A stretch of DNA of 64,000 bases, taken from Desulfovibrio desulfuricans (lineage in GTDB: Bacteria > Desulfobacterota > Desulfovibrionia > Desulfovibrionales > Desulfovibrionaceae). The position numbers and the translations under genes were made by a program. Under the pieces are notes generated by a model, which ran no database searches, had not been told where the DNA came from, and saw only the letters and a list, made by a program, of their open reading frames with translations. The stretch lies in NCBI GenBank assembly GCA_015062205.1, contig SUVB01000051.1:25816-89815 (forward strand), written 5' to 3'. The stretch's first letter is position 1. The number at the start of each line of letters is the position of its first letter. Below, piece after piece: positions 46,864-64,000 of the stretch.

Positions 46864-49200
46864 ATGAAGACCCTGCGGATAGAAGTGCGCGGCATTGTGC
46901 AGGGGGTCGGCTTCCGCCCCTTTGTGCACCGCGCGGCCGACGCCTGCGGGGTCAGGGGCAGCGTGGCCAACAGGGGTTCCTACGTGGAGATATTCGCCCA
47001 GGGCACGCGGGACAGGGTGGAACGGCTCCTCGGCATGCTCCGCAACGAGCCGCCGGAACGCTCGCTGGTCATGAAGATTTCCGCCACGGAAACGGATATC
47101 CCCGAAGCGCGGGAATTCGCCATTGTGGAGAGCGCGCGGGAAGAGGGCGACATCTTCGTCTCGCCGGACATCGCCACCTGCCCCCGCTGCCGGGAGGAGC
47201 TGTTCAATCCCGGCGACCGGCGCTACCTGCACCCCTTCATCAACTGCACGGCCTGCGGCCCGCGCCTGACCATTCTGGATTCCATGCCCTATGACCGCGA
47301 ACGCACCAGCATGGGAGCCTTCCCCATGTGCCGGGCCTGCGCGTGGGAATACACGCACGCCGAAACGCGCCGCTACGACGCCCAGCCCGTCTGCTGCAAC
47401 GACTGCGGCCCGCAGGTCTACATGCTCGACGGCGGGGAGCGCGGGGCCGCGGCCATCACGGCGGCGCGCCGCCGCATCATGGCGGGCGGCATCGTGGCCG
47501 TCAAGGGCATCGGCGGCTTCCACCTCTGCTGCGACGCGGGCAACGCCGCCGCCGTGGCCCGCCTGCGGCGGCTGAAACGCCGCCCGACCAAGCCCTTTGC
47601 CGTCATGCTGCGCGATATGGCCGCAGTGCGCCGCGAATGCGCAGCGGACACTGCGCGCGAGACCCTGCTGGACAGCTGGCAGAAGCCCATCGTGCTCCTG
47701 CCGCGGCGGGAGGGCGGCCGCCTCTGCGCCGGGACAGCGCCGGACAATCCCGCGGTGGGCGTCATGCTGCCCTATGCGCCCCTGCAGCTGCTGCTCTTCA
47801 CCTACCCCGACGATGTGCCCATGACGGACATGCTCGTCATGACCAGCGCCAACGCCTCCGGCGCGCCCATCTGCCGCACGGAGGAGGACGCCCGGCGGGA
47901 GATTTCCGGCTTCTGCGACGCCATCCTCTCCCATGACCGCGTCATCCGCCTGCGGGCCGACGATTCCGTCATGGATATCGTGGACGGGCAGCCCTCCATG
48001 ATCCGCCGGTCGCGCGGCTATGCGCCCCTGCCCTGCATCCTCTCCGGCGACTGGAAGGGCGCCGTGCTGGGCATCGGCGGCGAACTGAAGAACGCGTTCT
48101 GCCTGGGCCGCAACGAATTGTTCTACCTCTCGCCGCACATCGGCGACCTGGAGGACATCCGCACCGTGGAAGCCCTGCGCGCCTCCCTGACGCGCATGGA
48201 GGGGCTGCTGGAAATCCGGCCGCAACTGGCGGCCTGCGACCTGCATCCCCGCTACAACAGCGTGGCCGTGGCCGGGGATCTGGGCCTGCCGCTGCTGCCG
48301 GTGCAGCACCATTACGCGCACGTGGCCGCCTGCATGGCCGAGAACGACCGGCACGAGCCTGTCATCGGCGTTGCCTTCGACGGCACGGGCTACGGCTCGG
48401 ACGGGACAATCTGGGGCGGGGAACTGCTTGTGGCCGACTATGCGGGCTTCCGCCGCGCGGGGCACATCCGGCCCTTCACGCTGGCCGGGGGCGACGCCGC
48501 CGCCCGCGAGGGCTGGCGCGTGGCCGCGGCCATGCTGCAGGCCCTGCGCGGCGGGGACGCAGCGGAAGAGCTGCGCGCGCTCGGGGTCTGCCCGCCGGAG
48601 GAGGCCGCCGTGGTCCAGGCCATGACGTCAAAAAACATCAACTGTGTGCGCTCCACCAGCGCGGGCCGCCTGTTCGACGCCGTCAGCGCCCTGCTGGGCC
48701 TGCGGCGGGCCTCCACCTTTGAGGGCGAGGCTTCCATGGCGCTGCAGTTCGCGGCGGAGGCGCACTGGCGCACGGTCGGGCAGGAGCCGGGCGAGGCCAC
48801 GGCGCGCATGGCCGCCCGGCTGCACAAGGACGGGCGCGGCCCCCGGCTGGCGGAGGAAAACGGCGCGCCGGTGCTGCCCACGGAAACGCTTGTGGAAGAC
48901 CTGGCGGCAGCCCGGCTGAACGGGGAGCCCTCCGGCCCCCTGGCCGCGCGCTTCCACGCGGGGCTGGCCGCCATGATCACGGCCTGCTGCGAGCGCATCC
49001 GCGAAGATACCGGCCTTACGACCTGCGCCCTGACGGGGGGGGTGTTCCAGAACCGGCTGCTCTCCTCGGCCTGCGCCCGGCTGCTGGAACAGCGCGGTTT
49101 CCTCGTGCTGCGGCACAGCCTCGTGCCGCCCAACGACGGCGGCCTTGCCCTGGGGCAGGCCGTCATTGCCGCATGGCGGCTGCGGCACGGCCGGTTGTGA
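46864..49200 (+). CDS. hypF: Carbamoyltransferase HypF ([NiFe]-hydrogenase maturation)
   Basis: Acylphosphatase N-terminus (GIVQGVGFRPF), two CxxC-x18-CxxC zinc fingers, KGIGGFHL, QHHYAH, TSAGRLFDA, PPNDGGLALGQ. Confidence 0.97.
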   Translation: MKTLRIEVRGIVQGVGFRPFVHRAADACGVRGSVANRGSYVEIFAQGTRDRVERLLGMLRNEPPERSLVMKISATETDIPEAREFAIVESAREEGDIFVSPDIATCPRCREELFNPGDRRYLHPFINCTACGPRLTILDSMPYDRERTSMGAFPMCRACAWEYTHAETRRYDAQPVCCNDCGPQVYMLDGGERGAAAITAARRRIMAGGIVAVKGIGGFHLCCDAGNAAAVARLRRLKRRPTKPFAVMLRDMAAVRRECAADTARETLLDSWQKPIVLLPRREGGRLCAGTAPDNPAVGVMLPYAPLQLLLFTYPDDVPMTDMLVMTSANASGAPICRTEEDARREISGFCDAILSHDRVIRLRADDSVMDIVDGQPSMIRRSRGYAPLPCILSGDWKGAVLGIGGELKNAFCLGRNELFYLSPHIGDLEDIRTVEALRASLTRMEGLLEIRPQLAACDLHPRYNSVAVAGDLGLPLLPVQHHYAHVAACMAENDRHEPVIGVAFDGTGYGSDGTIWGGELLVADYAGFRRAGHIRPFTLAGGDAAAREGWRVAAAMLQALRGGDAAEELRALGVCPPEEAAVVQAMTSKNINCVRSTSAGRLFDAVSALLGLRRASTFEGEASMALQFAAEAHWRTVGQEPGEATARMAARLHKDGRGPRLAEENGAPVLPTETLVEDLAAARLNGEPSGPLAARFHAGLAAMITACCERIREDTGLTTCALTGGVFQNRLLSSACARLLEQRGFLVLRHSLVPPNDGGLALGQAVIAAWRLRHGRL

Positions 49201-49411
49201 CGACAGCCCCTCACGGGCTTGCATGGAACAACGCGCCGGGCGCCGTCACGTCCGCAGCAACGCCTTTTTTGACAGTTGCAGGCAGCCTGCCATAGACAGC
49301 GTCCGCACAAAGCGCTTGCCACAAAGCCCCGCCATGGGATACCCTAGGAACGGCAGGCGTGCCGTTTTTCATTGGGCGCGCCCTTTGTCCGTATCTACCC
49401 GAGAGGCGCGC

Positions 49412-50785
49412 ATGGAAGCTTTGTACAGTTTTTTGCAGCAGGTCAGCGATTTTGTCTGGGGGCCGGTGATGCTGGTCATGCTGGTGGGCACCGGCCTGTA
49501 CCTGACATTGGGCCTGCACTTCTTTTCCTTCCGCAACTGGATCACGGCATATCGCTGCCTCTGGGCCGGGCGGAAGGATCAGTCGGAACGCGGTGAGGTT
49601 TCCCCCTGGAATGCCCTGATGACGGCCCTTGCCGCCGATATCGGCACCGGCAACATCGTGGGCGTGGCCACGGCCATTGCCGTGGGCGGCCCGGGCGCGC
49701 TGTTCTGGATGTGGATGACCGCCCTTGTGGGCATGATGACAAAATTTTCCGAAGTGCTGCTTTCCGTGCACTTCCGCGAGCGCACCCCCGCCGGCAACTG
49801 GGTGGGCGGGGCCATGTATTTCATCAAGAACGGCCTTGGCCCCAACTGGAAATGGCTGGCCACCTGTTTCGCCCTGTTCGGCATGATCGCCTGTTTCGGC
49901 ATCGGCGGCATGGTGCAGTCCAACGCCATCAGCGTGAACCTGGAACGAACCGCAGGCGTGCCCAATGCCGTCACGGCCCTCCTGCTGCTCCTCCTGGCGG
50001 GCATGGTGCTGGTGGGCGGCGTGAAGCGCGTGGGCGCCGTGGCCGGCAGGCTGGTGCCCTTCATGGCCGCCATCTACGTGGTCATGTGCATGGTCATTAT
50101 CTGCCTGAATTTCACGCGCATCCCCGCCATTGTGTGGTGGGTCATCAGCGACGCCTTCACCCCCACCGCCGCGCAGGGCGGCTTTGCCGGGGCCACGGTA
50201 ATGATGGCCATCCGCATGGGCATGGCCCGCGGCGTCTTTTCCAACGAGGCGGGCCTCGGCTCCGCGCCCATGGCCCACGCCGCGTCCACGGCGGAATCCC
50301 CGCTGGTGCAGGCCAGCATCGGCATGCTGGACGTGTTCATCGACACCATCATTGTCTGCTCCATGACGGGCTTTGTGATTCTCATTTCCCTGACGCCCGA
50401 AGGCCAGCCCCTGTGGAGCTCCGGCCTCAACGGCGGCCTGCTCACCGCCGCCGCCTTCAAGGCCTCGCTGTCCAGCTTCGGCGAATACGGCGTCACCATC
50501 TGCCTCACGCTCTTCGCCTTCACCACGTCGCTCGGCTGGTGCGTCTACGGCGAGCGCTGCGTCATCTACCTCTTCGGCGACAGGGGGCAGAAGCCCTTCC
50601 GCATCGTCTTTGTCTGCGCCATTGCCCTGGGCGCCGTGCTCAAGCTGGACCTGGTCTGGCTGCTTTCCGACATCGGCAACGCGCTCATGGCCTTCCCCAA
50701 CATTCTGGGCATTCTGCTGCTCAGCCCGGTACTGTTTCAGATTGTGCGCGACGAGGTCAGCAAGGACCCGCGCTTCGTGCTGTAA
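49412..50785 (+). CDS. Alanine/glycine:cation symporter (AGCS family)
   Basis: GTGNIVGVATAI..GGPGALFWMW, RGVFSNEAGLGSAP, DT.IVC.MTG, FAFTT..GW..YGE. Confidence 0.95.
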   Translation: MEALYSFLQQVSDFVWGPVMLVMLVGTGLYLTLGLHFFSFRNWITAYRCLWAGRKDQSERGEVSPWNALMTALAADIGTGNIVGVATAIAVGGPGALFWMWMTALVGMMTKFSEVLLSVHFRERTPAGNWVGGAMYFIKNGLGPNWKWLATCFALFGMIACFGIGGMVQSNAISVNLERTAGVPNAVTALLLLLLAGMVLVGGVKRVGAVAGRLVPFMAAIYVVMCMVIICLNFTRIPAIVWWVISDAFTPTAAQGGFAGATVMMAIRMGMARGVFSNEAGLGSAPMAHAASTAESPLVQASIGMLDVFIDTIIVCSMTGFVILISLTPEGQPLWSSGLNGGLLTAAAFKASLSSFGEYGVTICLTLFAFTTSLGWCVYGERCVIYLFGDRGQKPFRIVFVCAIALGAVLKLDLVWLLSDIGNALMAFPNILGILLLSPVLFQIVRDEVSKDPRFVL

Positions 50786-53419: not shown

Positions 53420-53992
53420 CTACCATTCCGGCAAAAAGCAGCGGCAGGCATAGTGCTGCGGGATACGCAGCACCTCGTCAAGAGGCAGGGCCAGGTAGCG
53501 GGCCAGCAGGACGCGCAGCACGCCCGCATGCGCGACGCACAGCAGCGCGCCCTGCGGATAGCGCTGCCGCCAGCGGGCCAGCGCATCCAGAGCGCGGCGC
53601 TGGACTGCGGCGAAGCTTTCCCCGCCGGGAGGGACAAAGTCGCCCATATCCCGGCCGCGTGCCGCGTGCGCGCCGGGCCAGCGGATTTCAATCTCTTCGC
53701 GGGTCAGGCCTTCCCAGCGGCCAAGGCTTATTTCGCGCAGGCCCGGCTCCACATGCAGGGGAACAGGCTCGAAATGCTCCAGCAGCAGGGCTGCTGTTTC
53801 ACGGCAGCGGGACAAGTCCGAGGTGATGACGGCGCACAGCCGTCCGCGCAGGCCGGGCATGAACCCGCGCGCCAGGGCGCGCGCCTGCGCCCGGCCCGTT
53901 GCGCTCAGGGCAATGTCGCGCGCGCCGACCATGCGGCCTTCCGGATCAGGCGGCAGCGCGCCGTGCCGCACCAGCCAGACGCCGCCGCTCAC
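53420..53992 (-). CDS. Histidine phosphatase (phosphoglycerate mutase/CobC-like)
   Basis: LVRHG, SDLSRCRETA, LREI..G.WEG, GGESF, VAHAG. Confidence 0.9.
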   Translation of the reverse strand: MSGGVWLVRHGALPPDPEGRMVGARDIALSATGRAQARALARGFMPGLRGRLCAVITSDLSRCRETAALLLEHFEPVPLHVEPGLREISLGRWEGLTREEIEIRWPGAHAARGRDMGDFVPPGGESFAAVQRRALDALARWRQRYPQGALLCVAHAGVLRVLLARYLALPLDEVLRIPQHYACRCFLPEW

Positions 53993-55200
53993 GCCCCGCC
54001 TCCGCCCGACGGCATGGCGGCTGCGGCCGCCAGCGCCTCCTGCGCCATGTCGGCCGGAGCGCGCCCCGTTTCCGCCGCCAGACGCGCCTCCAGCAGGCGC
54101 GCCCTGTGCAGGCGTCCGGCGATGGCCGCGCAGGCTGCGGCATCTCCGGCATACAGCGCCATCTTCAGTGCAAAACGGCGCGCCAGCGGCACAAATTCCC
54201 CGCCACGGCAGTATTTGTCCGCCAAGCAGACCAGTTCGCGCTCCGTGATCGGCTGCGCGTCCGGCAGGCGCAGGTCACGATGGCCGCGCACCAGCGCGGC
54301 CATGCGCGGCAGGCCCAGACTGTCCAGCAGCTCGCCCCCGGCCCGTTCATGGCACGGCTGCCCCTTGCAGACATCGTGCAGCAGCCCTCCGGCCCGCGCC
54401 AGCTCAGGATCAAGCTGCGCAGCCATGCCCGCTGCCGTGCGGCAACGCGCCAGCTCTGCCGCAAAGCGGGCAGCCACGGTCCCCACGGCGCGGGCATGGC
54501 GCAGGCCCTTTTCCGGCACGGCGCGCAGGGCCAGCAAAACTTCCGCCTCCGCCGGGGAAAGCGCCTCCCGCGCGGCCGCCAGAGCCGACAGGCGCGTGTA
54601 GTCTTCCGGCGTGTCCATGTCTTGCAGCATCAGGGCATCGGGCGTGGGCACGAGGCGCCGGGGCAGGTCCGCCAGCGCGCCCTGCAGGCCGCCACGCCCG
54701 CCATACGCCAGAATGCGCGGCGCAGCGGCGGCGGGAATCAGGGGCGGATGCCCCTCGCGTCCGGCAAAGACGGGCACGAACACGGGCGGGGACGTTGCGG
54801 CGTCGGCTGCGGCGGCTTCCCGGGCGGCCGCCAGCAGGGCCTGCACAGTCAGCGGCCGCACCAGCGGCACATCCACGGGATGCACGAACACGGGGCGGCC
54901 CGGGTGCCGCCGCGCCAGCGCGGCCAGCCCCGTCCGCACGGAAGAGAACATGCCTTCTTCCGGCGCGGGATTGCGCGCTGCCGCGAGGCCCAGAACTCCG
55001 GCCTCCGCCTCCACGGCGGCGGCATAAAAGCCGCTCACGACCAGGATGTCTTCCAAACCGCAGGCCCGATACAGCCGCGCGACGGCGGCCAGTGCGGAAC
55101 AGGCCGCGCGCCCTCCCGGCAAGGGCAGGGGCAGCAGGGCCTTGACCCGCCCCATGCGCTCGGCCCTTCCGGCGGCAAGGATTATAACGGTTGGCTGCAT
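53989..55200 (-). CDS. MocA-like nucleotidyltransferase fused to HD domain (DVU_1551-like)
   Basis: IILAAGRAERMG..KALL, GMFSSV, PVD.P, GHPP, DMDTPEDY; C-terminal H...LLHDV.K...H...G, ADK. Confidence 0.85.
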   Translation of the reverse strand: MQPTVIILAAGRAERMGRVKALLPLPLPGGRAACSALAAVARLYRACGLEDILVVSGFYAAAVEAEAGVLGLAAARNPAPEEGMFSSVRTGLAALARRHPGRPVFVHPVDVPLVRPLTVQALLAAAREAAAADAATSPPVFVPVFAGREGHPPLIPAAAAPRILAYGGRGGLQGALADLPRRLVPTPDALMLQDMDTPEDYTRLSALAAAREALSPAEAEVLLALRAVPEKGLRHARAVGTVAARFAAELARCRTAAGMAAQLDPELARAGGLLHDVCKGQPCHERAGGELLDSLGLPRMAALVRGHRDLRLPDAQPITERELVCLADKYCRGGEFVPLARRFALKMALYAGDAAACAAIAGRLHRARLLEARLAAETGRAPADMAQEALAAAAAMPSGGGGA

Positions 55201-55443
55201 GACGCTCCCGGCGGATGTTGTGAACATGCGCGCCGAAAACAGCATATCATCGGGAGAGGCCCTTGCGCAAACAGCGGTTTCTGCCGCCAGGCGGCATGCG
55301 CGCGAATGTCCGCCCTGCCGCTTCTTGAAGTTCGGTATCGTGCCGCTGCCGGCAATGCGGAGGACGCGCCGGACCAGTTCGTCCGGATCAGGCGGTTTTC
55401 CTTGTATTCCGTGCAGGAGTCCGTTTCACGCAGGGGCTGCCGC

Positions 55444-55515: not shown

Positions 55516-56370
55516 CTAGGGCAGCTTCATCCCCAGCAGTTTTTCCGCGTTGCCGCGGAAGAACTTCTTCTTGTGCTCTTCGGAGAAATTGAACCTGTCA
55601 AGGTCGTGAATGGCCTGCTTCAGATTGTAGCAGGGGTAGGCCGAACCGTACAGGATGCGTTCGCCGTCAAGCCAGCGCATGGCCTCGCCGTACATCTGGT
55701 TGCCGGGGGCGTCGGGATTGAGCATGTACAGATCCGGCAACAGCCAGATATTGGGCTGCACGATGCACAGGTTCACGACATGGAGCAGCCAGGGGTAGCA
55801 GGCGTGCGCCAGCACGATCTGCAGGTCCGGGAAATCCTGCGCGACGCGCTGCGCGGCCGCCGGATTGGAATAGTCCAGATTGCCCTGGAAGAAGCTCATG
55901 GTGAGCACCACCGGCACCCGGGCCTTTTCCAGACGCGCATAGATGGGGTAGAGAACATTCGCGTCCGCGAAACGCGGCGGCATGCAGTAGGCGGGCTCCA
56001 TGGCGATGCCCTTGAAACCCATGCTCAGGCAGCGCTCCAGTTCGTCCATGGCGGCGGCCACGCCGCGCGACACGTCCAGGCTGCCGAAGGGAATGATCCT
56101 GTCCGGGTAGGCCCTGGCCATGTCGTTGATGTCGTCATTGGGAACGGAGGCCGTGTCGTCCGGCACCTGACGGCCGATGATGACGCCGGCGCTGATGCCC
56201 GCCTCGTCCATCTCTTTCCAGAAAAGGTCGATGGACTTTTCACGGGCGGCCTGGCTCGGCACTCCGTGCCATTTCTGGGGCGAGCTTTCGTTGCAGACAG
56301 GGTTGCCGTAAATGCCGAGATTGGTGAATTTCTTGTATGGCGGCCGCAGCCGGAAATCAAAAATCTTCAT
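55516..56370 (-). CDS. Amidohydrolase family protein (Amidohydro_2 type)
   Basis: IFDFR.RPP, GFKGI..EP, LYPIY, PDL.IVLAH, LYGSAYP, F..NAEKLL; GGAG RBS before MKIF. Confidence 0.85.
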   Translation of the reverse strand: MKIFDFRLRPPYKKFTNLGIYGNPVCNESSPQKWHGVPSQAAREKSIDLFWKEMDEAGISAGVIIGRQVPDDTASVPNDDINDMARAYPDRIIPFGSLDVSRGVAAAMDELERCLSMGFKGIAMEPAYCMPPRFADANVLYPIYARLEKARVPVVLTMSFFQGNLDYSNPAAAQRVAQDFPDLQIVLAHACYPWLLHVVNLCIVQPNIWLLPDLYMLNPDAPGNQMYGEAMRWLDGERILYGSAYPCYNLKQAIHDLDRFNFSEEHKKKFFRGNAEKLLGMKLP

Positions 56371-56426
56371 GACACACTCCAAGTATCTGAATTTGCATAT
56401 TGCCATATGCCGGAACATGGAATTCG

Positions 56427-57545
56427 TCAACGTATTTCACGGCTGCTCCCGGGGCGGGCGGCGGCATGCGCGCCCTTGGGCAGCCGCGCGATGCGCGGCC
56501 CCGCTCCCGCGGCGTCGCGGAGAATGCGGCCCCGCACCGGGCCAAGCCGGGGCAGGGGGCTGCCGCAGGCGCAGGGCCCCGGCAGCAGGGAGGCCACGTC
56601 GCCCGTACGGTAGCGCACCAGCGGCATGGCCTCGCGCTGCAGCGTGGTGATGACCACCTCGCCCTCCTCGCCGGGCGGCAGCACCCGATCGCCCGTCATG
56701 GCGACAATTTCCACGTACACATCCAGCGCGCGCAAATGATAGCCGTCGTGGGCCGGGCATTCCACGGCGCAGCCATAGCCGGTTTCGGTCAGGCCGTAAT
56801 GGTCCAGCGTCAGGCAGCCCCAGCGCTCCCGCAGAACGCGGGCCAAGCCCGGCGGCAGCGGTTCCGCGCTGGACAGGATGCCCGCAAGGCCGGGCGGTCC
56901 CGCATCAGGAAACTGCGGCAGAAGACGCTCCAGCTGGGCGGGCGCGGCCACCACGCAGTGCGGGCGAAGTTGCGCAAGCTGCCGCGCCGCCGCGCTGCCG
57001 CGCAACAGCTCCGGCGGCAGGGCGAGCACCTCCACCCCGTCGGCCTCAAGGGCCTGCCGCAGCAGGTCGGCCACGCCGTCCGGACGTTCCGCGCCCGGCA
57101 GAAGCACGACCAGCCGTTGCCCCCGCCCCGCCAGCCCGCGCATGCCCACGGCGAAAAACTGACGCGTGCGCGCAAGGTCCGCTTCCGTGAAGGCCAGCCG
57201 CTTGGGCGCGCCCGTAGTGCCCGAGGTGCGCAGCGTGACCATGCGCTCCACCGCCCCGCGCGACACGCAGAGAAAATCCTCCCAGCGCGCCAGGTCTTCG
57301 GGCCGGGTGAAGGGCAGACGCGCCAGATCATCCGGACCGGACACGTCAAGGCAATGCCCGCGCAGCAGCCGCGCGTAAAAACGGCTGTTCCCGCCCGCAT
57401 GGCGCAGAACGCGCCGAAGGGCGGCCATGCGCGCGGCCGTGAGCCGCCGGGGCAGGTCTTCCGGCGATGCGCCGCACTGCCCGGCCAGCCAGGCGTCCAA
57501 CGCGCAGGCGAACCTGCCGGGGGGCGGCGCTGCGCCCGTTGTCAC
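56427..57545 (-). CDS. Phenylacetate-CoA-ligase-like AMP-forming enzyme (DVU_1553-like)
   Basis: TSGTTGAPKR, DHYGLTETG, VVITTL, MPLVRYRTGD; GTG start overlaps radical SAM stop. Confidence 0.85.
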   Translation of the reverse strand: MTTGAAPPPGRFACALDAWLAGQCGASPEDLPRRLTAARMAALRRVLRHAGGNSRFYARLLRGHCLDVSGPDDLARLPFTRPEDLARWEDFLCVSRGAVERMVTLRTSGTTGAPKRLAFTEADLARTRQFFAVGMRGLAGRGQRLVVLLPGAERPDGVADLLRQALEADGVEVLALPPELLRGSAAARQLAQLRPHCVVAAPAQLERLLPQFPDAGPPGLAGILSSAEPLPPGLARVLRERWGCLTLDHYGLTETGYGCAVECPAHDGYHLRALDVYVEIVAMTGDRVLPPGEEGEVVITTLQREAMPLVRYRTGDVASLLPGPCACGSPLPRLGPVRGRILRDAAGAGPRIARLPKGAHAAARPGSSREIR

Positions 57546-58942
57546 CGCCCGTCCCCGTACAGCCGCGTGCCGTCCGCGGACGTGATGTTGTGCAGACAGA
57601 AGGGGATAAGCCGCCCGTCGGGCCGCGCCACATGGATGCAGCAGCCGCGCACGCGGTCCACGTCCAGACTCAGGGCGTCCTGAAAGGCCATGGCCGAAAG
57701 GGTGAAACGGCGTTCCGCCCCGGCCTCGGCCAGAAAGCGGCTGAAGCCGTCTGCGGCGGCGCTTTCGCGGCCGGAGGGCGTCGGCGCAGGGCCGCTCCCC
57801 TTCCAGTGCAGGGCCGTGAAGCGGCGGGATTGCCGCGCCCCCTCCGCCGCCGGAGGCGGCGCAAAAGGGGCCTGCGGCGCGGGCGCGCAGCAGGCGGCCT
57901 GCCCCAGCGGTTCCAGCGCGGGCGCGCCCTGCCGCTCCGTACGGCGGTACACGGCGCTGAAGGAGCAGAGTTCGTGCTCGCAGCCCGGCGGGTGCACATG
58001 GCCGGGACTGAACAGTTCCGGGGCCTGCTGCGCCAGCGCGCCCATCACTTCGGGCAGGGTCAGACGCGGGGCCTGCTCCAGCCGCCAGGGGTACCGCCCG
58101 AAAAAGGCGGCTGGCTGCAAATGCAGGCCGCGCACGGCAGGCCCCAGACGCAGGGCCAGACGCAGGAGTTCGCCCAGTTCGTCCGAATTGACGCCGCGCA
58201 CGACGGTGGCCACCAGCACCACCCCCAGACCCGCGCGGGCGCAGTGCTCCACGGCGCGGCGCTTGAAGGCCAGACACTCCCGGCCGCGCAGCGACAGGAA
58301 GGACGCCTCGCGCGCGCCGTCCCACTGCAGGTAGACGGAATCCAGCCCCGCCGCGCGCAGCCGCGCGGCATATTCCGGGTCTTCGGCCAGCCGCAGGCCG
58401 TTGGTATTGAGCTGCACAAGGCCGAAGCCGCGCTGCCGGGCCAGGGAAAGGATGGCGGGCAGGTCGTCGCGCACGGTGGGCTCCCCGCCGGAAATCTGCA
58501 CGTTGCAGGGGCCGGAGGCCTGCCGGAGGGCATCCAGCTGCGCGGCGACGACTGCCGGGGGCGGGTCCCCCGCGACCGCCTCCGCGCCCGCGACCGCGTA
58601 GCAGACGGGGCAGGCCATGTTGCAGCGCAAGGTCACTTCCACAAGGCCGGTGCAGGTGTGCTGGGCATGCGCCGGGCACAGGCCGCAGTCAAAAGGACAG
58701 CCCCCCGCAATGGACGTGGCGGGACGGGCAGGATAGGAAGGCGCCTTGGGACGCGACCAGTCCGCAAAGGCGGGCGTGGAAGGGCCGCCCTTCTGCGGCT
58801 CGCGCCACACGGGCACGCTGAAGGCCCCGTGCTCCGGGCAGCGCTTGCGCAGCAGGACGGCGGCGCCGTCGGGGGCTTGCTCGTACACGGCGTCCAGCCG
58901 CCGCAGACAGACGGGGCAAAGACTCTGGGTACGGCGCAGCAT
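57542..58942 (-). CDS. Radical SAM protein with extra Cys clusters (TrsS-like; Tes/GDGT-MAS MJ0619-like architecture)
   Basis: N-terminal CPVC...CPEH, CPFDCGLC, RS motif CNMACPVC, SGGEPT, C-terminal CCIH...IPFC. Confidence 0.85.
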   Translation of the reverse strand: MLRRTQSLCPVCLRRLDAVYEQAPDGAAVLLRKRCPEHGAFSVPVWREPQKGGPSTPAFADWSRPKAPSYPARPATSIAGGCPFDCGLCPAHAQHTCTGLVEVTLRCNMACPVCYAVAGAEAVAGDPPPAVVAAQLDALRQASGPCNVQISGGEPTVRDDLPAILSLARQRGFGLVQLNTNGLRLAEDPEYAARLRAAGLDSVYLQWDGAREASFLSLRGRECLAFKRRAVEHCARAGLGVVLVATVVRGVNSDELGELLRLALRLGPAVRGLHLQPAAFFGRYPWRLEQAPRLTLPEVMGALAQQAPELFSPGHVHPPGCEHELCSFSAVYRRTERQGAPALEPLGQAACCAPAPQAPFAPPPAAEGARQSRRFTALHWKGSGPAPTPSGRESAAADGFSRFLAEAGAERRFTLSAMAFQDALSLDVDRVRGCCIHVARPDGRLIPFCLHNITSADGTRLYGDGR

Positions 58943-59406
58943 CACGCCCCCGCAGCGAGATCCAGCCCGTAGCTTTCGGCCAGCTCCAGGATCTTTTCCC
59001 AGCATTCGGCCAGCAGGTCGCCGCAAACCATAGGATCGGGCCGTTCCCCGGGCGCGCCGGAGGAAGCCCCCAACCCGGCGGCCACCTGCCCGCAGCGCAG
59101 GCCGCCGTACGCCTCAACGCGCGCATGGAACCACATGCCGTACTCGTTGAGCAGGGGCGTGAACATGGGGTGCGCCGTTTCGTCTTCCGAGCCCTTGCCC
59201 GCCGCCAGCGCAAGGGCGCAGGCCCCGCCCGTGAGCAGCCCGCACGGCCCGTCGGACTGCCCTATGCCGTGGCACAGGCCCTGCGCCGCGCGCACTGCGT
59301 CAGGACAGTCCCTGTTCATGGCCTGCGCCATGAGCAGCAGCAACAGCTGGCTGCAGCAGTAGCCCTGACGCGCCAGCGGCAGCAGTTCCATCATCATGGG
59401 GTGCAT
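58942..59406 (-). CDS. C-GCAxxG-C-C family putative redox protein (DVU_1555-like)
   Basis: GYCCSQ, GLCHGIG, CGLLTGGACA, C..., C.DL pattern. Confidence 0.85.
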   Translation of the reverse strand: MHPMMMELLPLARQGYCCSQLLLLLMAQAMNRDCPDAVRAAQGLCHGIGQSDGPCGLLTGGACALALAAGKGSEDETAHPMFTPLLNEYGMWFHARVEAYGGLRCGQVAAGLGASSGAPGERPDPMVCGDLLAECWEKILELAESYGLDLAAGA

Positions 59407-60137
59407 ACGGTCTCCTTTTTTCGGGCGATCCACAATCCGTACCCGTAGCGGCGCGGAACCGAAAGAGCGCAGGCGCACGCCCCGCTTTTCGCCGGGTCTG
59501 TCCCGGCGGAAAGGCGGGACGCGGCAGGCCCGCTCTCCCCGTCGCCATACCAGAGCATGCGCGCCGCCAGCTCCACGAGGGCCCGGCTGTGATCCTCATA
59601 CAGCAGCACGCCAAATCCGGCCTTTTCCAGAAAATCGCGCCACCCGGCGGCAGGGCGCGCGCCCTTCAGGCAGGAAGCGCCCTCCTCCCGGCCCGGTCTC
59701 CGGCCCGCCTCCTCCGCGCGCAGCGTCAGATCGCCCACAATGCCTATGCCGCCCGCTCGCAGAACGCGGCAGGCGGCGCGCAGAACTGCCAGGGGATCGT
59801 CCAGCAGGGAAAGCACGCACTCGCAGAGCACCATATCCGCGCAGCCTTCGGCCAGCGGCGGGCGGCGCAGATCGGCGCGCACAAAGGCTGACGCGGCGGC
59901 CCCTCCCCCTTCCGGCCCGTCCCCGCGGTCCAGCCCCACGGCGACATAGCCCCGCGCCGCCAGCAATTCCAGCGTGGCCCCACCCCCGCAGCCCCAGTCC
60001 TGCGCCAAGGCCGGGGGTCGCATCAGCCCCCGCGCCTCGCACCAGTCGAGCGCGCGGCGCGTCAGGGCGCGGCCGCCGGGCCGCCACGCGCCCCCTGCCG
60101 CAACGCGAAAATCCGCCCGCTCCCACAGCGCGCTCAC
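59394..60137 (-). CDS. Class I SAM methyltransferase (DVU_1556-like)
   Basis: RPGG..LT, DWGCGGG, GLD, ECVLSL, LRAGG, GYGLWIARK; GTG start overlaps upstream stop. Confidence 0.85.
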   Translation of the reverse strand: MSALWERADFRVAAGGAWRPGGRALTRRALDWCEARGLMRPPALAQDWGCGGGATLELLAARGYVAVGLDRGDGPEGGGAAASAFVRADLRRPPLAEGCADMVLCECVLSLLDDPLAVLRAACRVLRAGGIGIVGDLTLRAEEAGRRPGREEGASCLKGARPAAGWRDFLEKAGFGVLLYEDHSRALVELAARMLWYGDGESGPAASRLSAGTDPAKSGACACALSVPRRYGYGLWIARKKETVCTP

Positions 60138-60349
60138 TTGTCCTCCAGCAGCGCTTCCACTTCCAGCATCTTGCCTTCGGCCAACGACCTGGGCACCATC
60201 GTCAGGCCGCATTGGGGGCAGCGCGGCAACACCACGTCAAAGGCGCTGTTGAGATAGAACACCGATGTCCTGATCTGCTCCAGAGGCACGCCGCAACGGC
60301 CGCACACCCAGCGGCCGCCGTCCGGCCCGTAATTCGGCCCCATGCTCAT
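60134..60349 (-). CDS. Small CxxC..CxxC redox/metal-binding protein (DVU_1557-like)
   Basis: WVCGRC...LPRCPQCG...LAEGKMLEVEALLEDK. Confidence 0.8.
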   Translation of the reverse strand: MSMGPNYGPDGGRWVCGRCGVPLEQIRTSVFYLNSAFDVVLPRCPQCGLTMVPRSLAEGKMLEVEALLEDK

Positions 60350-62778
60350 GACCGCTCCCTCTTGCCGCCGTCGGTGCCGCTCTGGCAGGCCCTGACAACA
60401 TCCTCGGCTTCCTGCCCTCCTGCGCCGGGGACAATCATGCGATGGCACCAGGCGTCGCGCAGTTCGTACTCCTCGCCCCGCTTCCGGTATGCCACCCAGA
60501 ACGTCACCTTGCGCGGCCGCCATGAGCCGAGCCTGCACCCGTCTTCCCGATTCTCGAACCAGTGCCCGCAGGCTTCCGCCCCGGCCACGGCCTCCGTGAC
60601 GTCTGTGAGCAGGATATGCCGTTCCTCCAGCCGCGCCAGCAGATCTGGGGCGACACGCAGGCGACAGGACGGCTTCGGCGGCTCGGGGACTGCGCCGCCG
60701 CGCGCCAGCAGACGCGCGCGCAGGGCCGCCCGGTTGGCCCGTCGGGCCGAAAGGCCCGGCCCCGGCGTCGCGCCCGAAGCGGGGAATGCCCCCGGCAGCA
60801 GCACATCCAGCAGATGCAGGCACTCCTTGCCCCCGGCGACCAAGCGGTCGCGGCACATGATGCACGAAGCAAGGCCGGGATGCGGCAGTTCCGCCGCACG
60901 CCGGTCCCCCATGACGCCGGCCAGTTCCGGCTGGGCGCACCACACCAGACCGCCGTAGCCGCAGCAGCCCGTGGTCGCGCCGGAAAAACGCGGTTCCTCA
61001 ATGCGCGCGCCGCACTTGCGGGCCAGGCTGCGCACCGCCGCCAGCCAGGCCGCGTCATGCCGGGCGGCACAGGGATCGTGCATGGAAAACAGCTCGGGCA
61101 ACGCCGCCTGCGCGCCGTCCGCACTGCCGGACAGGCCGTCCCGCAGCGCGCGCAGGCCGGAAGCGTCCAGCCCGTCCAGAACCTCCCACACCGAAAGGGC
61201 CTGCGCTTCGGGCAGGGTTTCACGCAACACCGTGAGGCAGGAGGCGCAGGCCGCCATGACGCGCGGGCGGCCCAGGCGTTCCCACGCCGCCCGCAGTCGC
61301 GCCGCGTGTTCGCGGAACAGCCGCGTCCGTCCGGCCCAGCGCGCGGGTATGCCGCAACAGGAGAGCATGAGCGCCACGCCCGGCGTCGGCCCCTCCGCAA
61401 GAACGGCGCGCAGCCGCTCGTAGAGCGCTGCCACCTGTTCCCCGCGCGAGGCTGCCAGCTGGCAGCCGGGGAAAAACAGCCACGCGGGAGCGCCGCCGTC
61501 CGCCCCCGTATCCGGCAGGGTCAGGGCGCAGTCCGGGCCGGAGGCGTTTTCCATGTCCTCCAGGGCAAACTCATGAGCGGAGGGCGGCATGAAGCCGCGC
61601 TCCACCATATCCTCGCGGGCGGCCAGACACAGCTCGGCCATGGAGAAATTTTCGGGGCACAGTTCCTCGCAGCGACCGCACAGGGCGCAGCCATTGATCA
61701 TGGCATTGGCCGTGTGCAGGCCCTTGACGATGGCAGCGTTATTATACGCCTGCCGCGCATAGAGGCGCGGATAGCCCTTGTATTTTTGCAGATACGCGCA
61801 TTGCCGCACGCAGATCAGGCACTCGCACTGCAGGCAGCGCTGCGCCTCGGCGCGGGCCTCCTGCGCGTCGAACAGCCCCTCGTCGCCCGCGCGGACGGCA
61901 GGTTCCACCTGCGGCACGGGCGCAATGCCCGTCACATCCGTATGCAGGGGGTTCTGCTGCCTGACGCGTGCGGCCGTCAGCGAAACCTTGCCCGCCAGGC
62001 GCTCCATGGTCTGCGCGGCCTGCCTGCCCTCCCCCGCCTGACGCGAGGACGCGATGAAGGCATGCCCCGTGGCCGTGCGCCCCGGCCGCCCCGCGCAGCA
62101 GATATTGCCGCGCCAGAGCAGCGTGTCCGGCTCCACGGCCGCCGTCTCCGGGGCCAGTTCCGGAAAGGCGTCCGCATCCAGCAGCACGGCGTCGTATTCT
62201 TCGGCCGCGCGCTCCAGCAGGGCGGCCTCCGCCTCCGACGGCGCGAAGACGACGTTCCGGGCCGTGAGGGCGGCCATATCTTCCGCCGCGAAATCCTTGG
62301 CAATGCCCTCCGTGGACTGCAGTTGCGGATAGCGCGTGAGCAGCGCGTCCAGGGGCGCGCCCCGGTGGAACACGGTAACGGGATAGGCCTTGCGCGCCAG
62401 ATCCCACGCCGCGGCCAGCCCCGCCAGCCCCGCCCCCAGCACGGCCATGCGCAGACGCTTGGGCGGCAGGGGGAGGGTCCGCCCCTGCGGTCCTGCGGTC
62501 AGCATGCAGGCCAGCTCCAGGCCGTGCAGGGCCACGCTGCCGCCGAGGTCGCGACGCAGACAGACGTTTTCGCACGGGTGGTCGCAGATGCGCGCCATGA
62601 TGCCCGGCAGGGGCAGGTGCAGCTCCAGCAGCCTGCGGGCCTCGCCCGGCCGCCCTTCGGCCATGCGGGCCATGAAGGCGCGCACGTCCAGACCGAAAGG
62701 ACAAGCGGCGCGGCAGCGCGGCGGGCTCTCCTGGGTACAGTGCGATTCTATTTCGTGCAGGCGGTTCTGGTTCATCAT
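60346..62778 (-). CDS. Multi-FeS flavoprotein oxidoreductase: GltD-like N-terminus, dicluster, CCG domains (DVU_1558-like)
   Basis: C.QE.PP.C.AACP, ICDHPCE..C.R, GAGLAG FAD motif, CLQCECLICVRQC, CALCGRCEELCP, FFPGC, CCG, HDPC, CCGYGG. Confidence 0.85.
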   Translation of the reverse strand: MMNQNRLHEIESHCTQESPPRCRAACPFGLDVRAFMARMAEGRPGEARRLLELHLPLPGIMARICDHPCENVCLRRDLGGSVALHGLELACMLTAGPQGRTLPLPPKRLRMAVLGAGLAGLAAAWDLARKAYPVTVFHRGAPLDALLTRYPQLQSTEGIAKDFAAEDMAALTARNVVFAPSEAEAALLERAAEEYDAVLLDADAFPELAPETAAVEPDTLLWRGNICCAGRPGRTATGHAFIASSRQAGEGRQAAQTMERLAGKVSLTAARVRQQNPLHTDVTGIAPVPQVEPAVRAGDEGLFDAQEARAEAQRCLQCECLICVRQCAYLQKYKGYPRLYARQAYNNAAIVKGLHTANAMINGCALCGRCEELCPENFSMAELCLAAREDMVERGFMPPSAHEFALEDMENASGPDCALTLPDTGADGGAPAWLFFPGCQLAASRGEQVAALYERLRAVLAEGPTPGVALMLSCCGIPARWAGRTRLFREHAARLRAAWERLGRPRVMAACASCLTVLRETLPEAQALSVWEVLDGLDASGLRALRDGLSGSADGAQAALPELFSMHDPCAARHDAAWLAAVRSLARKCGARIEEPRFSGATTGCCGYGGLVWCAQPELAGVMGDRRAAELPHPGLASCIMCRDRLVAGGKECLHLLDVLLPGAFPASGATPGPGLSARRANRAALRARLLARGGAVPEPPKPSCRLRVAPDLLARLEERHILLTDVTEAVAGAEACGHWFENREDGCRLGSWRPRKVTFWVAYRKRGEEYELRDAWCHRMIVPGAGGQEAEDVVRACQSGTDGGKRERS

Positions 62779-62875: not shown

Positions 62876-64000
62876 CTACTTGGGCATGGCCTCCAGCACC
62901 TTGTCAGGACGGGCGGGCAGATGCCGCACGCGCGCCCCGCAGGCATTGTAGATGGCGTTGATGATGGCCGGATGCGGCGCGGTGAGGGGCATCTCGCCCA
63001 CGCCGGACGCGCCGAAGGGGCCGTCCTTGCGCGGCGTCTGCACATAGACGATTTCCATGTCGTCGGGAATCATCCTGATGCCGGGCACGCCCGCGCCGCC
63101 CATGGTGGCATGCTTCTTGAGATCCTCATAATCCTCGGACAGGGCCAGGCCCACGCCCTGCGCCATGCCGCCGTAGATCTGGCCGTCCACCACAAGCTTG
63201 TTGTTGACCTTGCCGATGTCGGTCACGCAGACCAGCTTTTCCACCGTGGTCTTGCCGGTGGCGACCTCCACCGCCACTTCGGCCAGGAACAGGCCGTACA
63301 TGTAGCAGGCGAAGGGCTCGCCCTGGCCCTTGGCGTCGCAGTCCCTGGCGGGGGCGGTCCACTTGCCGTCGTAGTGCACGGGGCGGCCGTCCGCCAGCAT
63401 TTCGCCATAGGTGAGGAAGCCGCCGTCCGCCTTGCGCATGCCTTCCAGCAGCAGTTCGCAGGCCACGCGGATGGCGTTGCCCGTGACCACCTGCGAGCGG
63501 GAACCGCCCGCCGGGCCGGAATTGGGCGTCTTGCTGGTGTCGTTCATGACCAGGCGTATGCGTTCGGGCGCAAGGCCCAGCGGCCGCAGGGCCTCGTGGG
63601 CCGTGCCCAGCGCGCCGGAATCCGCGCCCTGGCCGTGGTCTTCCCACGAACTGCCGATGGTCACGGAGCCGTCGGCATTGAGTTCCGCCCAGGCCTCGGA
63701 GGTGTCCGGCCCGTCCAGGCCCGCGCCGTACACGCCGAGGGCGATGCCCGTGCCGCGCTTGACCTCCGCCGTGGAGCGCTCCTTCACGCGCTTTTTGGAT
63801 TCCTCATAATAGGGGCGCATGGCCTTGAACATCTCCGGCAGGCTCAGGACTTCGGGCGCCTGTCCGGAAGGCGTGGTGTCCCCCTCCCTGTAGCAGTTCA
63901 GTTCGCGCAGGTCGAAAGGATCCATGCCCAGCTTCTCGGCCAGCTCGTCCATGAGCACTTCGGAGGGGAATTCCGACTCCGGCGCGCCGTAGCCGCGGAA
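62876..64000 (-). CDS. mop: Molybdopterin-dependent aldehyde oxidoreductase (xanthine oxidase family), C-terminal part
   Basis: FRGYGAPESEF, EDHGQG, SGPAGGSRSQV, YMYG, DGQIYGG..QG.GLAL, GASGVGE.P. Confidence 0.92.
   Translation of the reverse strand, partial: FRGYGAPESEFPSEVLMDELAEKLGMDPFDLRELNCYREGDTTPSGQAPEVLSLPEMFKAMRPYYEESKKRVKERSTAEVKRGTGIALGVYGAGLDGPDTSEAWAELNADGSVTIGSSWEDHGQGADSGALGTAHEALRPLGLAPERIRLVMNDTSKTPNSGPAGGSRSQVVTGNAIRVACELLLEGMRKADGGFLTYGEMLADGRPVHYDGKWTAPARDCDAKGQGEPFACYMYGLFLAEVAVEVATGKTTVEKLVCVTDIGKVNNKLVVDGQIYGGMAQGVGLALSEDYEDLKKHATMGGAGVPGIRMIPDDMEIVYVQTPRKDGPFGASGVGEMPLTAPHPAIINAIYNACGARVRHLPARPDKVLEAMPK

Follow-up and report, generated by a model that had tools for sequence, protein, structure and literature searches.

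TrsS, a bacterial relative of the archaeal tetraether synthase encoded in an aldehyde oxidoreductase operon of Desulfovibrio desulfuricans, and its possible role in carbon-sulfur or carbon-selenium bond formation

The stretch of Desulfovibrio desulfuricans DNA analysed here, which will be referred to as the window, comprises 64,000 nucleotides of contig SUVB01000051.1 (assembly GCA_015062205.1, positions 25,816 to 89,815, forward strand); all positions given below are those of the window. On its minus strand, at 57542-58942, it encodes a radical S-adenosylmethionine (SAM) enzyme, which an earlier note, made from the letters of the sequence, had likened to the archaeal tetraether synthase Tes, or GDGT-MAS. 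Judged by its sequence, the gene is trsS and belongs to the already named and modelled bioinformatic family of radical SAM (seleno)proteins TrsS, which is separate from Tes. TrsS is a true homologue of GDGT-MAS/Tes and has the same fold, yet it is no Tes orthologue. It appears to be the radical-chemistry core of a closely packed gene module that, by its gene content, is tied to aldehyde-oxidising molybdenum- or tungsten-pterin (Mo/W-pterin) enzymes. We tentatively propose that TrsS forms a carbon-sulfur or carbon-selenium bond; a role in coupling lipids is unlikely.

The trsS coding sequence starts with ATG and encodes 466 amino acids in a form with cysteine at position 97 (Cys97). A longer open reading frame starting with TTG and extending to 59026 was rejected; the 98% identical database protein P0001 likewise begins with MLRRTQ. 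All motif strings quoted in the earlier note are present in the 466-residue protein. These are, in the N-terminal part, TQSLCPVC (residues 5-12), KRCPEHG (33-39) and GCPFDCGLCPAH (81-92), in the core CNMACPVC (107-114, the CX3CX2C motif) and SGGEPT (151-156, a GGE-type SAM-binding motif), and towards the C-terminus CCIHV (434-438) and DGRLIPFC (442-449), the latter followed by N452. Pfam detected Radical_SAM (PF04055, 7.9e-21) and Zn_ribbon_HMPTM (PF23545, 7.3e-18). The sequence of the window is found again in faecal and sheep-gut metagenomes.

Family identity was observed directly. The protein scores 554.1 bits against the NCBIfam model NF045646 for the radical SAM (seleno)protein TrsS (cut-off 490; residues 4-462 covered), whereas against the Tes equivalog model NF045702 it reaches 300.8 bits and thus stays below the cut-off of 450. 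Its nearest database protein, P0001 from an uncultured Desulfovibrio, carries the NCBI name TrsS. Besides passing NF045646, the window protein has the neighbourhood of the family, as described by the NCBI sister models NF045645 and NF045663 to NF045669; it differs from the family in having Cys rather than selenocysteine (Sec) at position 97, in a locus without an XdhC gene and in an additional Amidohydro_2 gene. The name TrsS is listed in a table of a 2026 review (PMC13188914) that credits Haft and Tolstoy (2025, mSystems 10:e0141724). Literature searches yielded no experimental work on, or published biochemical function for, any TrsS member, and searches on DVU_1553, DVU_1554 and DVU_1556 found nothing.

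The best solved relative of TrsS is GDGT-MAS of Methanocaldococcus jannaschii (MJ0619; PDB 7TOL and 7TOM), with E=3e-74 for 7TOL when the single sequence was used and 8e-105 with a family profile. An AlphaFold2 model of TrsS (predicted local distance difference test score 85.5, predicted template modelling (TM) score 0.89) was matched by Foldseek to 7TOL with E=9e-38 and whole-chain TM scores of 0.77/0.73, while other radical SAM folds reached at most 0.39. The core of the model, a partial TIM barrel, aligns with MoaA, SkfB, viperin and HydE. TrsS is therefore placed among the radical SAM enzymes by its CX3CX2C motif, its GGE-type motif, the PF04055 match and this partial TIM-barrel core.

To compare the metal sites, MJ0619 and 119 further Tes matches were collected, and the 60 of the 119 that were usably long were aligned jointly with 79 TrsS sequences drawn from 80 genome loci; conservation within TrsS was counted on 81 sequences. 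With GDGT-MAS numbered as published (PMC9433317), C9/C12/C33/H36 of its rubredoxin-like iron site correspond to C9/C12/C35/H38 of TrsS, C73/C77/C80/H83 of its N-terminal [4Fe-4S] cluster to C82/C86/C89/H92, C98/C102/C105 of its radical SAM cluster to C107/C111/C114, and M439/C455/C470 of its C-terminal [4Fe-4S] cluster to M418/C434/C449. The third Cys of the C-terminal cluster, C338 in Tes (H-x-H-C-G-T-S-T-Y-V), corresponds to the invariant C326 of TrsS (L-C-S-F-S-A-V-Y). Judged by this alignment, all four metallocofactor sites of GDGT-MAS, including the labile Met, are kept in TrsS.

In the window, all on the minus strand, the rubredoxin-like mononuclear site C9-x2-C12...C35-x2-H38 (Zn_ribbon_HMPTM, PF23545) lies at 58829-58918, the N-terminal auxiliary site C82-x3-C86-x2-C89-x2-H92 at 58667-58699 and the radical SAM motif C107-x3-C111-x2-C114 at 58601-58624, each of them invariant in the 81 sequences; SGGEPT (58475-58492) is conserved in at least 90% of them. 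The C-terminal auxiliary [4Fe-4S] domain (57596-57967) contains the codons for C326 (57965-57967), M418 (57689-57691), and C434 and C449 (57596-57643), all four residues being invariant. These sites are of interest for what they do in the archaeal enzyme. In GDGT-MAS, a 5'-deoxyadenosyl radical takes a hydrogen atom from an sp3 carbon, and the resulting carbon radical is then held in a C-S bond to the Met-capped C-terminal cluster, which has been compared with those of sulfur-inserting radical SAM enzymes; under limiting SAM, a thiolated lipid is released (PMC9433317). The fold itself is thus capable of inserting sulfur.

Nevertheless, TrsS is clearly set apart from Tes. In the tree, the 79 TrsS and the 60 Tes sequences were each monophyletic, the split was recovered in 50 of 50 bootstraps, and identity between the groups was 28-42%. 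The position of GDGT-MAS Tyr459 is occupied by Tyr in 60/60 Tes and by V, I or T, never Tyr, in 79-81 TrsS; in the window protein the joint alignment places Val438 there (codon 57629-57631, minus strand). Tyr459 is strictly conserved across a set of 1,000 archaeal homologues, and its distance to the lipid carbon that reacts is 4.2 Å, yet Y459F/L variants of GDGT-MAS remain active (PMC9433317), so its absence is better read as family divergence than as loss of a required catalytic residue. Three tests of Tes membership, namely the model cut-off, Tyr459 and clade placement, thus put TrsS outside Tes by sequence. Between the third Cys ligand and the Met ligand lies a segment that does not align at sequence level between the two families. 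It has a median of 84 residues with 21% Ile, Leu, Val, Phe and Met (ILVFM) and a hydropathy of -0.43 in TrsS, against 97 residues, 36% and +0.07 in Tes, the C-terminal insert of TrsS being shorter, less aliphatic and rich in Gly, Pro and Ser. As this segment surrounds the lipid pockets in 7TOL, its composition served as a sequence proxy for them. TrsS further differs from Tes in its hosts, which are bacterial anaerobes, and in an operon centred on an aldehyde oxidoreductase. Membership in the MJ0619/Tes/GDGT-MAS structural family with the full Cys/His/Met layout was thus borne out by the 7TOL match, the fold and the joint alignment. Of the observations that the earlier note had named as refuting its proposal, clustering away from Tes was indeed made, and a loss of the hydrophobic channels is suggested through the composition proxy only.

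A further difference concerns Cys97 (codon 58652-58654, minus strand), which is Cys in 81/81 TrsS, while the 60 Tes have I, V or M and no Cys at this position. The trsS gene of the window contains no in-frame stop codon and hence represents the Cys form rather than a selenoprotein. Among the 80 genome loci no internal TGA was found that would encode Sec in trsS; the apparent matches were true stop codons or, in locus L056 (around 4069), an in-frame TGA where close relatives have Gly (SL-U-YWDTLLER versus SLGEWD...) and probably reflects a sequencing error or a mutation. Likewise, protein P0116, which seemed to be truncated N-terminally at the candidate Sec site, proved to be just cut by the contig end. 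Metagenome contigs were then searched with a DNA pattern requiring TGA at codon 97. This yielded a single match, contig L082 (33% G+C), which carries the same operon. Its trsS has the sequence ...CGLCGEHRQHT-U-TALIEITDRCNLGCKYC..., with an open and conserved frame up to the usual C-terminus. A hairpin begins 16 nucleotides past the UGA and is modestly better than those of shuffled sequences (z = -1.9). Position 97 is thus very probably the Cys/Sec position of the TrsS family, as read from one metagenomic contig, and would then be a reactive residue that Tes lacks. As a rule, selenocysteine is found at residues that are redox-active or handle chalcogens.

The genomic neighbourhood of trsS was analysed by tblastn of the window operon proteins against the 80 TrsS loci, which span Desulfobacterota, Bacillota (Clostridium tyrobutyricum, Acetobacterium, Sporomusa, Desulfosporosinus), Chloroflexota, Acidobacteriota, Campylobacterota (Sulfurospirillum) and Spirochaetota. 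The gene order recurs across these groups. The most frequent partners are the PaaK-like ligase (72/80 loci), the NF045663 oxidoreductase (70/80), the zinc-ribbon protein (69/80), the C_GCAxxG protein (68/80) and the methyltransferase (65/80). A Mop-type aldehyde oxidoreductase was found in 54/80 loci, many of the others being cut by contig ends. An XdhC-family 'aldehyde oxidoreductase maturation factor' (NF045664) lies between the ligase and the nucleotidyltransferase (NTP transferase) genes in 46/80. The NTP transferase itself is present in 41/80, only where the aldehyde oxidoreductase is of the Mop type, and a CobC-like phosphatase in 37/80. No lipid-synthesis gene is among the conserved syntenic genes of the 80 loci.

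In the window the corresponding genes all lie on the minus strand, and the ligase, the DVU_1555, DVU_1556 and DVU_1557 proteins and the oxidoreductase pass their NCBIfam cut-offs, the exception being the aldehyde oxidoreductase, which is truncated. Its C-terminal part, of the Mop type with molybdopterin cytosine dinucleotide (MCD), is encoded at 62876-64000 and runs off the window end (NF045668, MoCoBD_2). It is followed by the NF045663 oxidoreductase (60346-62778), which according to Pfam and NCBIfam combines an NfnB/GltD-like FAD/NAD(P) part, a 4Fe-4S dicluster, HdrD-like CCG domains and a C-terminal domain. The small zinc-ribbon protein of the DVU_1557 family (60134-60349; DUF7479, NF045645, PF24292) has a CxxC...CxxC pattern and ends with LEDK. 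This terminus is exactly LEDK in 68/70 sequences of the family from all sampled phyla, the other two ending with LEEK or LESK. So constant an end is usual for carrier or precursor tails such as those of MoaD/ThiS, LysW and MftA, and not for simple electron carriers, which suggests that the LEDK end is a carrier-type or docking tail rather than part of a plain 'redox protein', as the NCBI family name has it.

The class I SAM methyltransferase of the DVU_1556 family (59394-60137; NF045667, 190 bits, cut-off 155) gave weak NCBIfam matches to arsenite (ArsM) and selenoprotein methyltransferases. Its 3' end (59394-59411) encodes ...VCTP*, and the Cys codon is replaced by TGA in L007 (around 9508; VUTPFY*), with AUTPFF at the corresponding end in L004. 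Thus, this C-terminal Cys may be selenocysteine in some relatives, or the TGA may be an ordinary stop codon. Selenocysteine there would recall the NCBI 'UXPK-star' methyltransferase selenoproteins, which the window methyltransferase matches weakly. The next gene encodes the DVU_1555-family C_GCAxxG_C_C protein (58942-59406; NF045669, PF09719) with the invariant residues C42, C79, C129 and C152, and its stop codon overlaps the trsS start in TGATG. In the same way the trsS stop codon overlaps the GTG start of the ligase gene in GTGA. This PaaK-like adenylate-forming ligase of the DVU_1553 family (56427-57545; NF045666, 385 bits, cut-off 300) has PaaK 2Y27/4R1L as its closest PDB entries and carries an invariant C-x-C-G (C330/C332) and C268. 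It is a short form: Desulfovibrio-type ligases have about 372-402 residues and lack most of the C-terminal domain, while the orthologues of Clostridium and Dehalococcoidia have 439-467. Enzymes of the ANL superfamily normally need the C-terminal domain for adenylation and thioester formation.

Further along are an Amidohydro_2 gene (55516-56430), a DVU_1551-family MocA-like NTP transferase with an HD domain (53989-55245; NF045665, PF12804 and PF01966), which would help to mature the cytidine-dinucleotide cofactor used by the aldehyde oxidoreductase, and, syntenic with it, a CobC-like histidine phosphatase (53420-53992; Pfam, NCBIfam). No XdhC-family gene is present anywhere in the window, and the closest relatives, L001 and L003, are likewise without it; the Amidohydro_2 gene, located between ligase and NTP transferase, occupies the slot where most genomes carry XdhC. 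It was rejected as a part of the system, being found in 0/80 related loci and having a much higher transcript depth of its own. Beyond the CobC-like phosphatase lie HypF carbamoyltransferase (46864-49200, plus strand) and AgcS-type amino-acid carrier (49145-50785, plus strand) genes, which appear unrelated.

Transcription of the operon was observed in three gut metatranscriptomes, which carry contigs spanning it as a whole. Taking contig depth as a rough gauge of expression, the contig with aldehyde oxidoreductase, oxidoreductase and zinc-ribbon genes was about four times as deep as that with methyltransferase, C_GCAxxG and trsS genes. The depth of Amidohydro_2 was the highest (up to 630, compared to 14-50 for its neighbours), and this gene looks like an independently expressed, lineage-specific insert.

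Loci that deviate from this arrangement are informative with respect to what the module accompanies. In L031, L045 and L079, Mop is replaced by a tungsten-type aldehyde:ferredoxin oxidoreductase (AFOR; AFOR_N and AFOR_C domains) with a ferredoxin, L045 and L079 additionally carrying NAD-type aldehyde dehydrogenases. A fusion of the zinc-ribbon protein with the C-terminal oxidoreductase domain, seen in L031 and L045, suggests an interaction between zinc-ribbon protein and oxidoreductase. TrsS and ligase occur in L046 with a three-subunit enzyme of the xanthine dehydrogenase (XDH) type and a ThiF gene. An enzyme of the bis-molybdopterin guanine dinucleotide (bis-MGD) type is detected by Pfam in L035 and probably present in L076, as judged from an N-terminal motif alone. 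Dehalococcoidia loci keep the methyltransferase, TrsS (sometimes as a tandem duplicate), the ligase and a CCG-domain protein; they have neither zinc-ribbon nor C_GCAxxG protein, nor an aldehyde oxidoreductase within 10 kb. TrsS is fused to a Cys-rich DUF5714 domain in L048; as a comparison of DUF5714 with the C_GCAxxG family by hhalign was not significant, this fusion is a hint only. Tandem pairs of TrsS-like paralogues were seen in L070 (9992-12772), L073, L062 and L065 and three copies in L080, the hosts being Dehalococcoidia, Peptostreptococcaceae and a Clostridiales metagenome-assembled genome, and in L051 Cys-rich open reading frames follow TrsS. By their gene content, the paralogue loci, L048 and L051 would be divergent sub-systems without zinc-ribbon and C_GCAxxG proteins. 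What the variant loci have in common could be the pterin enzyme or else the aldehyde (or acid); both fit the Mop and AFOR loci.

On this basis, the reading that we favour, tentatively and with somewhat less than even confidence, is that TrsS acts on a carboxylate-derived substrate, activated by the ligase and perhaps tethered to DVU_1557, and forms a C-S or C-Se bond on it, that the methyltransferase caps the product, and that zinc-ribbon protein and oxidoreductase handle electrons. The module, in which TrsS would be joined by the oxidoreductase (or its C-terminal domain), DVU_1557, DVU_1556, DVU_1555 and the DVU_1553 ligase, would travel with an aldehyde-oxidising Mo/W-pterin enzyme. A carboxylic acid would first be adenylated by the PaaK-like ligase and perhaps be passed to the invariant C-terminal Lys of DVU_1557. 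SAM would be cleaved at the radical SAM cluster (C107/C111/C114), and the 5'-deoxyadenosyl radical would abstract a hydrogen from an sp3 carbon of the acid-derived substrate. The carbon radical would then be caught, as in GDGT-MAS, at the Met-capped C-terminal [4Fe-4S] cluster (C326/C434/C449/M418) to give the C-S or C-Se bond. A second lipid tail would not be coupled; instead, Cys/Sec97 might help to release or relay the thiol or selenol, which the ArsM-like methyltransferase would cap. Electrons might leave through the rubredoxin-like site and N-terminal cluster; DVU_1557 and the oxidoreductase, linked to aldehyde oxidation, would receive them.

This proposal draws on several lines of evidence. 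C-S or C-Se bond formation is suggested because the cluster site at which GDGT-MAS forms its S-C bond, labile Met included, is invariant in TrsS, and because Cys97 is TrsS-specific, invariant and encoded by UGA in L082 within the same operon. The wider scheme is proposed because ligase, methyltransferase, C_GCAxxG and zinc-ribbon genes keep a fixed order in 65-72 of the 80 loci, with overlapping starts and stops in the window, because the methyltransferase weakly resembles arsenite and selenoprotein methyltransferases, and because of the LEDK end of DVU_1557, its fusion to the oxidoreductase domain where the W-type AFOR replaces Mop, the TrsS-DUF5714 fusion and the transcription of the operon.

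Analogies for the chemistry are offered by LipA, BioB, MiaB and RimO, in which a carbon radical is likewise caught by sulfur at an auxiliary [4Fe-4S] cluster. Their sequence relation to TrsS is limited to the radical SAM core, however, and sulfur insertion by TrsS is a proposal. MiaB and RimO also methylate after thiolation, whereas the TrsS system has its methyltransferase as a protein of its own. A tethering role of DVU_1557 can be compared with LysW, itself a small zinc-ribbon protein, and with MoaD/ThiS and MftA, all of which are carriers or precursors with a conserved C-terminal tail. Again this is analogy only: DVU_1557 has a near-invariant terminus and is encoded beside adenylating and radical SAM enzymes, but its tail sequence differs and a modification of the tail is hypothetical. 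An extension of the proposal is that TrsS, ligase and methyltransferase build a sulfur- or selenium-containing 'swinging-arm' prosthetic group on the C-terminal Lys of DVU_1557, by LipA-like thiolation or selenolation at an unactivated carbon, which the oxidoreductase cycles for aldehyde-oxidising Mo/W enzymes. We regard this extension as quite improbable; if true, a protein-bound cofactor that has so far gone unrecognised would be widespread among anaerobes, gut Desulfovibrio included.

Several observations weigh against the favoured proposal. Loci of the Dehalococcoidia type do without DVU_1557 and the C_GCAxxG protein, and tethering to DVU_1557 is therefore not universal. In this Desulfovibrio lineage, most of the C-terminal domain required by ANL enzymes is missing from the ligase. 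Cys97 sits at the start of strand beta1, just past the N-terminal cluster motif, and may thus be near this surface cluster rather than the active site, and its assignment as a Sec position comes from one metagenomic contig with a modest hairpin (z = -1.9). Finally, a transcriptome study of C. ljungdahlii (PMC5640608) reports two tandem four-gene sets of aldehyde oxidoreductase, FAD-CCG oxidoreductase, 4-Cys protein and C_GCAxxG protein, one of which is induced on syngas or H2/CO2. One four-gene set is reportedly described without the TrsS partners, which would fit a maturation role equally well.

Such a role is the alternative we take most seriously, though we consider it rather unlikely: TrsS, ligase and methyltransferase would be a traceless maturase that, beside XdhC and MocA, targets the metal cofactor of the Mo/W-pterin enzyme or its active site, for example by delivering a terminal sulfido or selenido. 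The module is located between the structural genes and the XdhC-family (NF045664), MocA-HD and MoeA-like genes, other pterin enzymes can take the place of Mop (XDH-type with ThiF in L046, W-type AFOR with a MoeA-like gene in L031, bis-MGD enzymes in L035 and, by the N-terminal motif only, L076), and the NCBI model TIGR04317 describes a radical SAM maturase for tungsten-cofactor oxidoreductases. The fourfold depth of the structural-gene contig over that carrying trsS and the C. ljungdahlii set point the same way. However, the cofactor forms of the xanthine oxidase, AFOR and dimethyl sulfoxide reductase families differ, so that one chemical target is hard to name, and high-resolution D. gigas Mop structures reportedly show an ordinary MCD cofactor with no extra modification. 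Neither a cysteine desulfurase nor a SelD gene was seen among the loci inspected, and the pterin-free aldehyde dehydrogenases adjoining the module in L045 and L079 point to the aldehyde and not to a cofactor. The same dehydrogenases, together with Mop and W-AFOR, make three unrelated kinds of aldehyde-oxidising enzyme next to the module and would suit a catabolic pathway in which an aldehyde is oxidised to the acid, the ligase turns this into the coenzyme A (CoA) thioester or adenylate, and a radical step by TrsS follows, be it a rearrangement, a decarboxylation or a C-C reaction. The ligase is nearest to phenylacetate-CoA ligases, a PAS-domain sigma-54 activator is encoded beside the Clostridium tyrobutyricum locus, and a major facilitator superfamily transporter flanks two Dehalococcoidia loci. 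We nevertheless hold a catabolic function to be distinctly unlikely. The Desulfovibrio ligase lacks most of the thioester-forming domain, downstream genes for beta-oxidation or ring reduction are not conserved in the loci, the C_GCAxxG protein, the invariant LEDK tail and Sec/Cys97 are left unexplained, and the D. vulgaris aldehyde oxidoreductase is regarded as a housekeeping enzyme of ethanol metabolism.

TrsS might also act on a protein, cross-linking or modifying the DVU_1557 tail or the Cys motifs of the C_GCAxxG protein into a protein-derived cofactor in the manner of PqqE, MftC and QhpD. The constancy of the LEDK terminus across phyla, the fusion in L048 and a generic radical SAM similarity to MftC and PqqE would agree with this; but TrsS has no SPASM/twitch domain and no recognition element for ribosomally synthesised and post-translationally modified peptides, its C-terminal domain is Tes-like, DUF5714 shows no significant relation to the C_GCAxxG family, and some loci with TrsS and ligase have neither putative target, which makes the idea improbable. 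The least probable of all the explanations, and in our view a very unlikely one, is that advanced in the earlier note, namely a bacterial Tes that would give membrane-spanning lipids by joining two unactivated tails or by altering an acyl lipid in another way. It has in its favour the fold and the four cofactor sites, the acyl-activating enzyme next to trsS, and the proposal of bacterial 'Tes homologs' as synthases of branched GDGTs (brGDGTs) at BLASTP E<1e-50 (PMC8941075), a threshold that TrsS (3e-74) would pass. The lipid role is not supported, though, given the NF045702 score and the separate clade, the replacement of Tyr459 in all TrsS (tempered by the activity of Y459F/L GDGT-MAS), the shorter and less aliphatic Cys-to-Met segment, and neighbours concerned with aldehyde oxidation, redox and Mo cofactor in place of any conserved lipid-synthesis gene. 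Membrane-spanning lipids are not known from hosts such as Desulfovibrio and Acetobacterium. The CoA-ligase-like enzyme and methyltransferase to which that note had drawn attention are real, conserved partners with overlapping gene boundaries, and the sulfur/selenium or cofactor role that it had called 'equally possible' fits the evidence better than its lipid headline.

The distinction between the two families has practical consequences. BLAST-selected 'Tes homologs' of bacteria have been put forward as sources of the brGDGT lipids used in palaeoclimate work (PMC8941075); TrsS passes such thresholds yet is a distinct family, and TrsS proteins of Desulfobacterota, Bacillota, Chloroflexota and Acidobacteriota should be set aside in any genome-based inference of lipid producers. 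Cys97, the lack of Tyr at the 459 position and the relative scores against NF045646 and NF045702 discriminate TrsS from Tes. TrsS is a relative of GDGT-MAS, which alone among known enzymes joins two sp3 carbons via a cluster-bound C-S intermediate; it is expressed in gut Desulfovibrio beside an abundant aldehyde oxidoreductase and has the option of Sec at a family-specific site. The system is genetically accessible in the tractable host D. vulgaris (DVU_1551 to DVU_1559), and the reaction catalysed by TrsS is likely to represent new radical SAM chemistry.

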